64,000 nt of DNA from a virus (IMGVR_UViG_3300045988_075249:1-64000), one strand, 5' to 3'; numbered from the stretch's first letter, positions 46-60,125 are shown. The notes: a model not told the origin generated them from the letters alone. Translations and numbers: made by a program.

Positions 46-95
46 AGAGAGGCGTAAAGAAAAGACTTTAGATTTTACGCCTCTCTTGAAAATTA
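46..95 (+). terminator. stem-loop terminator candidate (gagaggcgtaaa...tttacgcctctc)
   Basis: 12-bp inverted repeat seen in the sequence; the downstream tract is A/T-rich rather than a clean T-run. Confidence 0.4.
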
Positions 96-140
96 AAAAA
101 AATTATTATATAATATATATAGAAAGTTAAGGAAAGGAAG
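86..140 (+). promoter_or_regulatory. class-B phage promoter: TTGAAA-17 bp-TATAAT followed by the conserved leader ATATATAGAAAGTTAAGGAAAGGA
   Basis: -35 TTGAAA at 86-91, 17-bp spacer, TATAAT at 109-114. The same leader recurs about 12 times in the window. Confidence 0.6.
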
Positions 141-197
141 TTCTGAGTTTGAAGATTTATCTCGACCTGCACCACCAATGAAGCAATTTCTATTGGT

Positions 198-623
198 ATG
201 GTAACAGAGAATGGAGATACATTTTATAGTCTCATTCGTCCGCATACGAAACTTGACCATAATATAAAGGTTTTGACAGGAGTTTCTCAGGAAGATGCAG
301 ACCAGGCTCCTAGTCTTGAAGAAGCAATGTTAGGAGTTAGAGAGTTCCTTTCCTTTCTTGATGAAGAAAATACTTTCTATCACTACGGCAAGAGTGATAG
401 GGGTTTTCTTAGAGCTTCTATGGGCTTTACGACTGATATGAAAGCTCTTACTACTCTGCAATACATTCACAATAGATGTGAAAATGTTGACAAAAGGGTG
501 GCGTCTCATTTTCGCAGGGATGCGATTGGTCTTAGGTCTGCGTATCTGACCATGAAACTTTCTTCTGAGGATCCAATTCAGAATCATAATGCTTTAGAAG
601 ATATACGTTTGGGAAAATATTGA
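198..623 (+). CDS. DnaQ-like 3'-5' exonuclease domain protein (DEDDh). Exo III motif H-NALEDI is present; no Exo I D-x-E motif is visible in the ORF
   Basis: Supplied ORF of 141 aa. The C-terminal HNALEDIRLG motif is typical of DnaQ/epsilon-like exonucleases. The upstream in-frame stretch (ISTCTTNEAISIG) lacks a start codon. Confidence 0.45.
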   Translation: MVTENGDTFYSLIRPHTKLDHNIKVLTGVSQEDADQAPSLEEAMLGVREFLSFLDEENTFYHYGKSDRGFLRASMGFTTDMKALTTLQYIHNRCENVDKRVASHFRRDAIGLRSAYLTMKLSSEDPIQNHNALEDIRLGKY

Positions 624-675
624 TGGATACACTCTTCCTGATGGGATTGAGCCGGTAAAAGTACCTAAGGTCAAG

Positions 676-1014
676 ATGTCTTATGGTAAAAGCAAGGCTA
701 ATCCTGCAAGCCCGGAAGAGCTGATGAATCGCAGACTGACGGCGAAACAGCCGCGTTCCCGCAGAAATGAAGCGATTAGGAATTGTCCTGCTATTGATGA
801 CGATAAGTATAAGATTGCGGGAGTGGCGATTAAGGGTGAGCGTGAAATTCCCTTTAAAGAGATTTATGAAGTAAAAGGGTTCGTTCATGTGGGCAGATTT
901 AAAACTGCGGCCCAGGTTCTTCATGCTCTTGATGTTATTTACGCGGCCATGGAGACCGGTAAAGGTAATCCAGATACCAAAGGCTGGATTTTTAAGAAAG
1001 TTGAAAAACAATAA
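676..1014 (+). CDS. hypothetical protein (112 aa)
   Basis: Supplied ORF with an ATG start; no in-frame TAG. Followed by a tRNA promoter. Confidence 0.5.
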   Translation: MSYGKSKANPASPEELMNRRLTAKQPRSRRNEAIRNCPAIDDDKYKIAGVAIKGEREIPFKEIYEVKGFVHVGRFKTAAQVLHALDVIYAAMETGKGNPDTKGWIFKKVEKQ

Positions 1015-1029
1015 AAAATATTGTATAAT
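1001..1029 (+). promoter_or_regulatory. class-A sigma70 consensus promoter (TTGAAA-17-TATAAT, extended -10 TGTATAAT) ahead of the tRNA array
   Basis: -35 at 1001-1006, -10 at 1024-1029. The same ~40-bp element recurs at 1606-1634 and 2987-3015. Confidence 0.65.
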
Positions 1030-1100
1030 ATTTATGTGAGTTGTTCTGTTGCAGCAGAACTTATAAGCCGCAAGTGAGGGCTTTATACTCACTTTTATAT

Positions 1101-1195
1101 CCCGCGGTAGCTCAACGGTAGAGCAGCCGGCTTATACCCGGTATTAGCGCCAGATTAGCGTGAGGTTTGGGGTTCGAATCCCTGGCGCGGGACCA
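1101..1195 (+). tRNA. aberrant tRNA-like gene of 95 nt. The apparent anticodon loop is CTTATAC (UAU), with a 25-nt variable region containing the direct repeat ATTAGCG-CCAG-ATTAGCG
   Basis: Acceptor CCCGCGG/GCGCGGG, D-arm AGCTCAACGGTAGAGC, T-arm TGGGG-TTCGAAT-CCCTG, CCA encoded. Too long for a canonical cloverleaf. Confidence 0.4.
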
Positions 1196-57390: not shown

Positions 57391-57429
57391 TGATTGCGCA
57401 ACCTCTTACTAAAGGAGGAAACAATCACA

Positions 57430-58197
57430 ATGAGACGTTTTATGAGTATTATACTAAGTTTAATCATTTTATTATCTATAATGTGTAGTTGCAATAGTCC
57501 ATTTATTTCTGTTGCATCAGCATACTCAGTTCAGTATAACAGCAATACAAGTTATACCTATAATGATTTAGATACATTGATTGAGCTTATTGCGGAACAA
57601 ATTTCTAACATGAATGCCGCACATCAAATGGCTGATGCCGCTAGGCAATTAGGTTATTCTGAAAACCATGATGTTATTGAGTTAGCCGTAAATGAATATG
57701 ATAAAGCTAATGAATTAAGACAATCCTATCAAAACGTATATGATAACCTCATGGAACACTGGCATCAAAAGGAAAAAGAGTACCCAGTAGCAACATATAT
57801 ATGGAGCTATTTCAAAGACCTAGGTTATAATAATCAAGTGTGTGCTGGAATACTTGGTAATATAATGACTGAAGTTGGTGGTAATACCTTGAACATTCAA
57901 TATGAATTAGGTAATTCTTCATATTATGGGATGTGTCAATGGAATAAGGCGTATTCTGAGGTTTGGGGAGCCTCATTAGAAGAGCAATGCAATTATTTGG
58001 AAAATACTATTGAATATGAATTTAATACATTCGGTCATGCCTATAAGAGAGGGTTTGATTATGAAGATTTTCTAAATATGACAAGTATAACTGATGCTGC
58101 TTTAGCGTTCGCGAAATGCTATGAAAGATGCAGTTCTGGAAGTTATACAGTACGACAAAATAATGCGATAATCGCATATAATTATTTTGTAAGTTAA
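57430..58197 (+). CDS. lipoprotein with a phage-lysozyme-like domain (signal peptide plus lipobox LSIMC)
   Basis: ATG at 57430 after AAAGGAGG; CAGILGNIMTEVGG...GMCQWN is paralogous to the N-domain of the endolysin. Confidence 0.5.
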   Translation: MRRFMSIILSLIILLSIMCSCNSPFISVASAYSVQYNSNTSYTYNDLDTLIELIAEQISNMNAAHQMADAARQLGYSENHDVIELAVNEYDKANELRQSYQNVYDNLMEHWHQKEKEYPVATYIWSYFKDLGYNNQVCAGILGNIMTEVGGNTLNIQYELGNSSYYGMCQWNKAYSEVWGASLEEQCNYLENTIEYEFNTFGHAYKRGFDYEDFLNMTSITDAALAFAKCYERCSSGSYTVRQNNAIIAYNYFVS

Positions 58198-58206
58198 AAT
58201 AAAATA

Positions 58207-58250
58207 TCTGCGGACTGGCCGGAACCTAGACGACCGTCCGCAGAAACTAA
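58207..58250 (+). terminator. terminator hairpin (tctgcggac...gtccgcaga)
   Basis: Seen in the sequence. Confidence 0.55.
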
Positions 58251-58379
58251 AATTGGTTTTACTATTTTTTGAGGTAAAATCGTCGGTTACGCGGTTTTAT
58301 AAAATTTTTGGACAAATCCTACGAATTATACTATAATAATATTCAGATAAGATATAAGAAAATAGGAGGAATTATTATT

Positions 58380-58907
58380 ATGGTAAATAAATGTGTTGTA
58401 TGTGGGAAGGATTTTGAGGCCATAAAATCCACAAAGAAATATTGCAGTAATGATTGCATGAATGCTGCCAGAAGAGCTAGATATGGAGAACGACAAATTT
58501 AGATGGTTACTAATTCAATGGATTTACATAATAAAAGCTGTCTTATTTGTGGGAAAGATTTTACGCCTAAAACCCCCGCCGCGAATAATCGTCAATGCTG
58601 TTATAATTGTATGCCAGATGGAGTTCAACTAACTAGAGGAATGTTTCTAGCTAAAATAAAAGAGCACCTAGGTGGAAGATGTATAAAATGTGGATACGAT
58701 AAATGTTTAAAAGCTCTAGAATTTCATCATTTAGATCCCTCTAAAAAAGATTTTACTATTAGTAACGATCATTTTAAGTTAAAAGAAGCGGTTGAAGAAG
58801 TAAAAAAATGTATTTTAATATGTTCTAATTGTCATAAAGAATTACATGATAATTTATGGACTATAGATGAACTAAATCTTGAAGAAAAGGAGGAAGTAGA
58901 ACCATGA
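58380..58907 (+). CDS. HNH endonuclease with two N-terminal zinc fingers; 1 in-frame TAG at 58500
   Basis: EFHHLDP...CSNCHKELH is the HNH core. Supplied ORFs 58308-58502 and 58503-58907 are in one frame. Confidence 0.6.
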
Positions 58908-60084
58908 CTCTAACTAACATGCAAGAGCAAGGTTTGAAAATCGCTGTAGCCCGATACAAAGCTCATGAGCCCTATACTTGTATCGCTGGCTACGCCTGAC
59001 CGGAACAGGGAAAAGCACCTTAATTAAATTTATTGTGGCTGCTCTTAATATGTATGAGGAAGAGGTTGCTTATATCGCTTTTACTGGAAAGGCTTCAGAA
59101 GTACTGCGAGAAAAAGGGTGTCCTAATGCTCAAACCGCGCATAGATTACTTTATTATAGTAAACAAATGCCTAATGGTAAGTTTGTTTATAAACCTCGGC
59201 CACATATTGAATATAGTCTTATTGTTGTAGACGAGGTATCTATGTTACCTATTGATATGTGGGAATTGTTACTTTCTCATGGAGTATATGTTATTGCTTG
59301 CGGCGACCCGTTCCAGTTGCCACCTGTAGACAAGACTAAAGAAAACCATATACTTGACAACCCGCATATTTTCTTAGATGAGGTAATGAGACAAGCTAAA
59401 GAAAGCGATATTATTGTTACAAGTATGAATATCAGAGAAGGCAAATCAATCGTTCCAATGCGAGGAAATGATACTCAAATATTTAGAAAACAAGAACTTG
59501 TAGCTGGGATGTACGGTTGGGCCGATGAAATTCTTGTTGCGACAAATAAGAATAGATTTGATATAAATTAGTTTATGAGACTTGATGCCGGAAGAAGCTC
59601 AGAACCAGAAAGAGACGATAAAGTTATTTGTCTAAGAAATACGTGGGATATTTGTTCTGTTAAAGATGAAAACCCTCTTATCAACGGCACAATAGGTTAC
59701 TTAAAAGATTTCTCTCTAGTTACGATGCAGTATAAAACTTTTACTGAGTCTTTTACGGCTCCGATACTTCTTTCTAATATTGAGACAACTTCTGGAGATA
59801 CCTATCTTGATGTTCCTATTGATTATAATTCGCTTTTAACAGGTAAGAAAACTTTCACTCCACAGCAAGAATATTATCTTAATAAAAGAAAGGATAACCC
59901 ACCTCTCCCAATAGAGTTTAACTATGGGTACGCAATCACCACTCATAGAGCCTAGGGTTCACAATGGGACAATGTATTGGTTATAGAGGAAAATTTTCCT
60001 TTCGATAAAGAGGAACATGCTAGATGGCTTTACACCGCTTGCACTAGAGCAGCAAAGAAACTAACATTGATTTTAAAGAAATAA
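58904..60084 (+). CDS. SF1 helicase (Dda/RecD-like) with a -1/+2 frame junction near 58997 and 2 in-frame TAG
   Basis: Walker A TGTGKST, Walker B VVDEVSM, motif VI TTHRA[TAG]GSQWD. The N-terminal 31 codons are in frame 2, the rest in frame 1. Confidence 0.55.
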
Positions 60085-60125
60085 TATAGTATAATATACT
60101 ATATAATAATATAAGAGAGGTATAA
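60067..60125 (+). promoter_or_regulatory. TTGATT-17-TATAAT promoter ahead of dnaE
   Basis: TTGATT at 60067-60072, TATAAT at 60090-60095. Confidence 0.5.

Follow-up and report, generated by a model that had tools for sequence, protein, structure and literature searches.

The host-takeover genes of phage SPO1 are equipped with promoters and ribosome-binding sites typical of highly expressed genes (PMC6873191), and SPO1 begins with the sigma-A of its host (PMC13401047). In T4-type phages, the elements named PeSLs unite a strong sigma-70 promoter, a stem-loop and a Shine-Dalgarno sequence (PMC2839356), and the phages of the phAss-1 group, about 130-150 kb in size, encode about 30 tRNAs, translate TAG as Gln and are predicted to infect Clostridia (PMC10607447). 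On the bacterial side, the pattern published for Firmicutes is TTGACA-17-TATAAT with a TRTG extended -10 and a start 7 bp past the -10 box, accompanied by an AT/AG-rich discriminator and an AG-rich initial transcribed region (PMC12641261). The present analysis concerns the promoters of the viral DNA IMGVR_UViG_3300045988_075249:1-64000, a stretch of 64,000 nucleotides referred to below as the window, in which about 22 sites, judged by their sequence, form a real promoter set of the ordinary bacterial housekeeping type. The window is a piece of a large uncultivated phage, because a megablast search of its gyrase region against 50,697 phage records returned no DNA match, its polymerase is 42% identical to those of the nearest cultured relatives (Enterococcus and Bacillus SPbeta-type phages), and more than 200 related contigs, with lengths up to about 400 kb, are present in IMG/VR. 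The genome probably exceeds 120 kb, and the host is probably a Clostridia-class member of the Bacillota.

The preliminary description of this DNA reported 20 or more near-consensus sigma-70 promoters. All 13 coordinates that it gave as examples (86, 5555, 9268, 17671, 18387, 21532, 33783, 36076, 45685, 47047, 49472, 51931 and 60067) possess a -35-like hexamer, a 17-bp spacer and TATAAT or TATTAT, and it had left unlisted the sites at 1351, 24334, 27299, 30948, 32157 and 40843. When at least 11 of the 12 hexamer bases are demanded at 17-bp spacing, 15 sites are found on the plus strand and none on the minus strand, against a mean of 0.58 and a maximum of 4 in first-order Markov simulations. An iterated weight matrix converges to 22 sites on the plus strand, and a matrix trained on related phages alone recovers the same 22, together with 1-3 on the minus strand, with a clean gap and no intermediate scores. 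The set thus comprises about 22 real sites; four of them have no -35 box, and the exact 24-nt leader discussed below is present in only four. The promoter sites also emerged from an independent repeat search of the window, where they make up the largest repeat families (D1, D3 and D4).

The -35 element is TTGNNN at 18 of the 22 sites, counting one TAGACA, and the spacer is 17 bp wherever this box is present. The -10 element is TATAAT in 19 cases and TATTAT in three. The four sites without a -35 box (24334, 27299, 30948 and 32157) all carry TGnTATAAT. The perfect -35 and -10 boxes announced earlier are a property of 18387 alone, which matches the consensus at 12 of 12 bases; elsewhere the -35 hexamer is mostly TTGAAA, TTGATT or TTGACT.

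The arrangement is conserved in related phages. A pattern search with TATAATATWTATAGAAAGTT identified more than 118 IMG/VR stretches, many of which are relatives of the window at 65-80% identity. In 131 unique IMG/VR instances seeded by TATAATATWTATAGAAAGTT only, which covers the -10 box and the positions downstream of it, the unseeded T-T-G-A lies exactly 17 bp upstream in 90-99% of cases, which argues that the -35 and -10 boxes belong together. Positions +9 to +17, likewise unseeded, form a purine tract, AAGRRAGGA, beyond which conservation fades. Further support was provided by 2.9 Mb of relatives fetched via three proteins, and hence unbiased for the promoter motif, where the gene strand has 750 strict TTGNNN-17-TATAAT sites and the opposite one 51. 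The logo of 571 non-redundant sites reads TTGA(c/t)(t/a), a T-tract, an A-tract, T-A-T-G, any base, TATAAT, and then ATATAT or ATTTAT; positions -17 to -14 are T (90%), A (74%), T (95%) and G (58%), and downstream, +1 is an A in 80% of the sites, +3 and +4 also favour A, and the sequence stays purine-rich until about +15. Of 24 loci orthologous to the gene encoding DNA polymerase III alpha, most have a promoter just upstream, even where protein identity is as low as 47%. Nine orthologous promoter pairs shared with the closest relative, which is about 80% identical, show 94% identity in the -35 box, 96% in the -10 box, 84% in the spacer, 82% in the discriminator and 86% from +1 to +10, against 63% in the upstream flank. 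Orthologous promoters are closer to each other than to paralogs, so that promoter inheritance is mostly vertical.

These promoters are very probably recognised by the host housekeeping holoenzyme containing sigma-A, the Firmicutes sigma-70. All of the published Firmicutes sigma-A elements (PMC12641261) are seen in the phage logo, and the sites combine a -35 box near TTGACA, a -10 box at 17 bp, an extended -10 and a sense orientation upstream of genes. The pattern of -35, -10 and AGAAAG also occurs in more than 120 genome or metagenome-assembled genome (MAG) contigs, nearly all of them from gut or rumen Clostridia or Bacilli. Some of these contigs are bacterial, e.g., a scaffold with a BipA-like gene, where a short RNA with a terminator follows the motif. 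In bacterial contigs (L206:7437-7560, L185:5070-5190 and L164:784-900) the same promoter precedes a small conserved RNA, about 60 nt long (GTTCGTAAGCTGTAGCTTAACCGCTCC) and ended by a terminator; an Rfam search gave no match for the sequence behind the bacterial motif copies. Of the strong transcription by the host RNA polymerase proposed in the preliminary description, the recognition of a host sigma-70 type is well backed by the strand bias, the 17-bp pairing, the TRTG and the orthologous hexamers, and the strength is predicted. Several points weigh against the host assignment. Among 120 MAG contigs, 42 share genes with the window, and many of the MAG matches are probably phage contigs binned with bacteria, few being clearly chromosomal. 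Moreover, the conservation of ATWTAT-AGAAAG, at 0.5-1.0 bit per position, is above that of typical bacterial promoter sets, and this downstream element could hold an extra function. Recognition by the polymerase, start sites, promoter strength and early timing are all inferred from the DNA. Lastly, the 64 kb at hand are a fraction of the genome, and a phage sigma factor or polymerase of similar specificity could lie beyond them.

Two other explanations bear on the promoters as such. One is that the matches arise by chance in AT-rich intergenic DNA, for which it may be said that at a loose level of 9 of 12 bases the matches barely exceed those in shuffled sequence (72 against 45, 68 against 65 and 109 against 84); the promoter signal resides in the near-consensus, high-scoring tail only. 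Given the single-strand excess of sites with at least 11 of 12 bases and the conservation of the sites in relatives, coincidence has a negligible probability. The other is that a sigma factor or RNA polymerase of the phage, in place of the host holoenzyme, recognises the motif. Transcription factors of their own are common in large phages, the length and uniformity of the consensus are unusual for the promoters of a host, and the window is only part of the genome. However, both boxes, their 17-bp distance and the TRTG are all of the sigma-A type, the same pattern is found on bacterial contigs, and no sigma factor or RNA polymerase domain was detected among 40 window proteins scanned against Pfam. 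The known sigma factors of Firmicutes phages, such as gp28 and gp33/34 of SPO1, use different boxes, and a reader encoded by the phage itself is accordingly very improbable.

The preliminary description distinguished a class A, located ahead of tRNA clusters, from a class B followed by a conserved leader. The class A 35-mer indeed occurs three times, at 1001, 1606 and 2987, with 0, 2 and 0 mismatches (0 occurrences expected); the copies at 1001 and 2987 precede tRNA clusters, but the one at 1606 first meets a protein gene. Because the class B sites 5555 and 9268 also drive tRNA clusters and the class A site 1606 heads a protein gene, the division into two classes falls, and "class A" and "class B" are, as far as their sequences tell, sub-families of one promoter type, with class A recently duplicated. 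When sought in all relative loci, the class A 35-mer was found in one relative only, since few loci cover the first 10 kb of the window.

The leader proved less widespread than the 20 or more copies first assumed. Its 24-nt form, ATATATAGAAAGTTAAGGAAAGGA, is exact at four sites (115, 5584, 9297 and 27328) and is present once more with 3 mismatches, AGAAAGTT is common to about seven sites, and the others share just ATWTAT, followed by A and a purine-rich stretch. With the transcription start placed 7 nt beyond the -10 box, predicted starts precede start codons by 9-46 nt, not with the ATG 8-20 nt past the leader as described before, or they directly precede tRNAs. An alignment of eight copies displays similarity from the -35 box to about +22, where it ends sharply, and the flanking genes are unrelated. 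The leader is locked to the -10 box, and its distance to the start codon varies among the four exact copies. The predicted leaders are unstructured (mean -2.9 kcal/mol, compared with -5.8 kcal/mol for random 45-nt windows), with energies no lower than those of shuffles. The first 6-8 nt of the leader fit a generic Firmicutes AT-rich discriminator, purine start and AG-rich initial transcribed region, and the purine tract from +9 to +17 fits a Shine-Dalgarno sequence. What remains of the conserved leader is the generic conservation of start region and Shine-Dalgarno sequence, and nothing indicates the dedicated regulator site that had been suggested. Multiplying the frequencies of the family logo gives a probability of about 2.5e-7 per site for an independent match to the 24-nt leader, on which account the exact 24-nt and 35-nt copies are best explained by recent cassette duplication or gene conversion.

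In addition, about 10 of the 22 sites lie directly behind, or overlap, a hairpin of -20 to -26 kcal/mol followed by a T-run, which ends at or inside the -35 position. In the relatives, an upstream hairpin of -15 kcal/mol or lower is found at 27% of the strict promoters and at 4% of coding controls. These composites resemble the PeSLs, which likewise combine a strong promoter of the sigma-70 type, a terminator stem-loop beside it or overlapping with it, and a Shine-Dalgarno sequence, and which likewise are present in many genomic copies conserved over roughly 60-100 bp (PMC2839356; PMC4122927). The resemblance is an analogy and not membership, because the PeSLs belong to T4-like myoviruses of Gram-negative hosts. 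Here the phage lineage and the host phylum differ, the replication genes being similar to those of Firmicutes phages and the promoters carrying TRTG. Furthermore, the hairpin stems share no single conserved motif and the cassettes are not limited to a stretch of orphan genes. In the window, where 4 of about 20 breakpoints lie near cassettes, a recombination role is only a possibility.

Two readings would assign the repeated elements a function beyond initiation. If the leader from +1 to +24 were the operator of a phage regulator, such as a repressor acting either on translation, like RegA of T4, or by binding DNA, it would coordinate an early subset of genes, and in the DNA-binding variant the repressor would shut off the early units. 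The four exact copies, the occurrence of AGAAAGTT behind the -10 box in more than 130 instances among relatives, the 0.5-1.0 bit held by each downstream position and a winged-helix/MarR-like gene directly downstream of promoter 49472 all speak for it. However, the information falls off gradually, leaving a generic purine tract, and has vanished at about +17 to +20. An operator would stand at a constant distance from the start codon or show dyad symmetry or RNA structure; the leader, which is tied to the -10 box and not to the start codon, has none of these. ATWTAT-AGAAAG is found, moreover, at bacterial chromosomal promoters with unrelated transcripts, and AG-rich starts are generic in Firmicutes (PMC12641261), so that an operator is unlikely. 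Somewhat more credit, short of preference, is due to the possibility that the repeats are mainly mobile PeSL-like cassettes, real promoters too, whose identity is kept by recombination and which serve as crossover points for gene shuffling. The fusion of about 10 of the 22 sites to strong hairpins, the enrichment of hairpins at the promoters of relatives, an identity over 30-35 nt far beyond what the logo predicts, the sharp end of homology at about +22 between unrelated flanking genes, and the description of PeSLs as the same composite (PMC2839356) are all in keeping with it. So are four breaks of synteny or identity that comparison with close relatives places within 100 nt of a cassette (27295, 30913, 35987 and 58280), a count taken from partial relatives with no proper null model. 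About 16 of some 20 breakpoints, on the other hand, lie away from cassettes, and both kinds of feature are intergenic anyway; the closeness of orthologs relative to paralogs points to mostly vertical inheritance, and the hairpin stems are not one conserved sequence.

Under the preferred reading, in which the sites are promoters for the host sigma-A, each of the roughly 22 promoters comprises TTGA(c/t)(t/a) as -35 box, 17 bp of A/T spacer with the Firmicutes "-16" motif T-R-T-G at its end, a -10 box TATAAT, an AT-rich discriminator (ATATAT or ATTTAT) and a predicted start at A, 7 nt past the -10 box. The transcript would open with a short, unstructured and purine-rich leader (AGAAAG..AAGGAAAGGA) endowed with a Shine-Dalgarno sequence, and translation would begin 9-46 nt from its 5' end. 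In about ten cases the promoter and the terminator of the unit before it are fused into one element; at four of these sites the T-tract of the terminator stands in for the -35 box, for which an extended -10 with TGn would compensate, and the identical copies of 30-35 nt would be recent duplications or gene-conversion products of this cassette. The promoters head short units on one strand, which contain tRNA/tmRNA (transfer-messenger RNA) arrays, including an amber suppressor tRNA, and genes for replication and for nucleotide or RNA repair. In view of this content, the promoter-led units most likely represent an early, host-dependent transcription programme.

For large lytic phages, near-consensus early promoters of the host type are textbook knowledge, and so are cassettes in which a terminator and a promoter are fused. 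The probable use of such promoters to have the host RNA polymerase transcribe tRNA and replication genes is a well-known phage strategy and involves no new mechanism. The likeness to SPO1 lies in the many closely spaced near-consensus housekeeping promoters, with strong ribosome-binding sites, ahead of small early genes (PMC6873191), and in the initial reliance on the host sigma-A (PMC13401047). The phage itself is unrelated to SPO1, as its gyrase region is unmatched in the 50,697 records and its polymerase is 42% identical at best; its promoters, presumably early ones, also head tRNA arrays and replication genes. Compared with the sigma-A promoters of Firmicutes, the phage set is far more uniform and includes exact copies of 30-35 nt. 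For large gut phages of this uncultivated but widespread clade, with more than 200 related contigs, the set offers a clean model of their promoters. The model helps the annotation of transcription units, backs the assignment to a Firmicutes/Clostridia host and tells TAG-recoded lysis and tail genes apart from those, among them the tRNA arrays and the amber suppressor, that are likely early and host-dependent.

The recoding was recognised from several seemingly ORF-free stretches (ORF, open reading frame) that are in fact coding sequence with in-frame TAG, and it is seen at 12937-17415, 27800-28051, 30051-30923, 38185-40791, 47657-49475 and 55639-57390. Read-through of TAG merges ORFs into full-length genes such as those for DnaB (517 aa), a RecJ-like protein (583 aa, 13 TAG) and an endolysin-like protein (468 aa, 10 TAG), and for the last of these a public gene caller gives the same 468-aa product with Phage_lysozyme2 and Amidase_2 domains. 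When aligned to relatives, the TAG positions correspond to Q in 504 cases, to K in 238 and to TAG in 231. Since the in-frame TAGs join split ORFs and mostly match Q in relatives, TAG is apparently translated as Gln in this phage; a tRNA with the anticodon CTA is encoded at 18859-18933, inside the unit of the sole perfect promoter (18387). The tRNA richness, the suppressor tRNA(CTA) and the reading of TAG as Gln are shared with the phAss-1 group, which differs in that the gyrase region of the window has no DNA match among the 50,697 phage records and in that promoters go unmentioned in PMC10607447. Two paralogous TAG-containing genes, 1810-2331 and 30051-30923 (family D14), encode repeated Cys-rich motifs (W.C.CDCG ... 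L.SG..SCGC).

It is the units without these promoters that contain TAG. In-frame TAG is present in 10 of the 12 genes located behind a terminator without a promoter and in 15 of the 53 genes of promoter-led units (Fisher p = 0.0007). Promoter-proximal genes are TAG-poor both in the window (0.65 versus 5.7 per 1000 codons) and in the relatives (1.0 versus 3.45 per 1000 codons), these samples not being independent. This distribution agrees with the published view of recoding as a mark of late genes and with phages of the phAss-1 type (PMC10607447), and suggests that the promoters mark an early gene set in the standard code. It is conceivable, if speculative, that in this clade the uniform terminator-promoter-leader cassettes define a "standard-code" early regulon that is read by the host polymerase and includes the amber suppressor tRNA. 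The TAG-rich lysis and tail units, located right behind terminators and devoid of such a promoter, would need read-through or antitermination as well as the suppressor; the two layers would then act as a timer, and the cassettes may in addition be PeSL-like recombination points.

All of the promoters are on the plus strand. The first (86..138; TTGAAA-17-TATAAT, exact 24-nt leader) scores 46.8 bits and lies directly behind the hairpin 45-87. Its downstream gene (139-623) encodes a DnaQ-like exonuclease, in which "KIYLDL" is read in one frame and "TTNEAISIGMV..." in the next; the gene looks frameshifted, with the expected catalytic Glu codon absent. The class A copy at 1001..1035 has its predicted start 65 nt ahead of tRNA-Ile, the one at 1606..1640 is followed by the ORF 1810-2331 and then by tRNAs, and the one at 2987..3021 lies 3 nt past tRNA-Asp and 175 nt ahead of tRNA-Ala, a copy of this last promoter being present ahead of tRNA-Ala in the MAG contig locus L243. 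Between the first two, 1351..1400 (TTGAAA-17(TG)-TATAAT with a AGAAAGTG start) precedes the ORF 1404-1619. Two sites with the exact 24-nt leader come next, 5555..5607, followed by the ORF 5621-5896, a tRNA cluster and the tmRNA, and 9268..9320, followed by the ORF 9320-9520, tRNAs and the ROOL RNA. The site 17671..17723 (TTGCAA-17-TATAAT) has a degenerate leader, the one with 3 mismatches, and an ortholog in the relative L330, and 18387..18436 is TTGACA-17(TG)-TATAAT.

In the central part of the window, a terminator hairpin (21486-21518) is followed by TAGACA-17-TATAAT at 21532 (21486..21591). Four composite cassettes then combine a hairpin with a promoter: 24305..24377, where the T-tract of the hairpin 24305-24339 replaces the -35 box and TGATATAAT begins at 24334 (repeat family D3); 27275..27351, where the hairpin is followed by TGATATAAT (promoter 27299) and the exact 24-nt leader; 30922..31006, with TGATATAAT at promoter 30948; and 32133..32206, with the hairpin 32133-32163 and TGGTATAAT at promoter 32157. 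The site 33783..33831 (TTGATA-17-TATAAT, AGAAAGTTAA start) has an ortholog in L280, and 36076..36141 is TTGATT-17-TATAAT with the terminator 35965-35993 and a 70-nt repeat upstream. This repeat (family D10; 12769-12838 and 35995-36064) has copies that are 86% identical, each right after a terminator, and shows no relation to the promoter family.

The remaining promoters precede mostly replication units. At 40793..40917 the terminator 40793-40831 is followed by TTGATT-17(TG)-TATTAT at 40843, in front of the gyrase unit; at 45648..45757 the terminator 45648-45684 adjoins TTGACT-17-TATAAT at 45685, in front of the ligase unit; and at 51904..51996 the terminator 51904-51933 overlaps TTGATT-17(TG)-TATAAT at 51931, in front of the DnaB unit. 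The sites 47047..47110 (TTGACA-17-TATTAT) and 49472..49522 (TTGACA-17(TG)-TATTAT) lie between these, the winged-helix/MarR-like gene downstream of the latter extending from 49523 to 49924, and 60067..60126 (TTGATT-17-TATAAT) has the DNA polymerase III alpha gene downstream. Two candidates were rejected: 38168 (TTGAAA-17-TATAGT) overlaps the Shine-Dalgarno sequence and ATG of the gene at 38185 and has a matrix score under the threshold, and the predicted start of 3167 (TTGACA-17-TATAGT) would lie within tRNA-Ala. The site 58309 (TGGACA-17-TATAAT) matches 11 of 12 bases, yet fails the matrix. A segment of about 700 nt that begins 29 nt ahead of it (58280-58967) is replaced relative to the closest relative, L121, with identity dropping from 91% to 79% across it.

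All long ORFs of the window are on the plus strand, and the G+C content ranges from 32 to 46%. ARAGORN detected 29 tRNA genes and one tmRNA within the first 20 kb, and an Rfam scan added two further tRNA-like matches and a 596-nt ROOL RNA. The tmRNA (7487-7802) is located inside the tRNA array and specifies the tag peptide DNDYFENYLAA. The ROOL RNA is full-length (10054-10649, 350 bits) and sits between both tRNA-Gln genes; the close relative L328 lacks exactly this segment, which makes it a clean indel. The tRNA-like elements uncalled by ARAGORN comprise the two Rfam matches (10916-11034, which is 119 nt long, and 11309-11393) and two T-arm/CCA-like ends (3961-3988 and 12633-12660), alongside which there is a perfect tandem repeat of 40 nt (3874-3953).

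The remainder of the window contains the replication genes for GyrB/GyrA, an ATP-dependent ligase, DnaB and DNA polymerase III alpha, together with PhoH, and Pfam scans further identified a Thg1-like enzyme, phosphoesterases, an RlaP-like nucleotidyltransferase and major-vault-protein-like proteins. The cluster at 19955-24294 and 25628-34923 encodes a DUF2828/DUF7788 protein, two major-vault-protein-like proteins, the RlaP-like nucleotidyltransferase, a P-loop kinase, the Thg1-like enzyme and several phosphoesterases; it resembles a module related to ribonucleoproteins and to the repair of RNA or tRNA.

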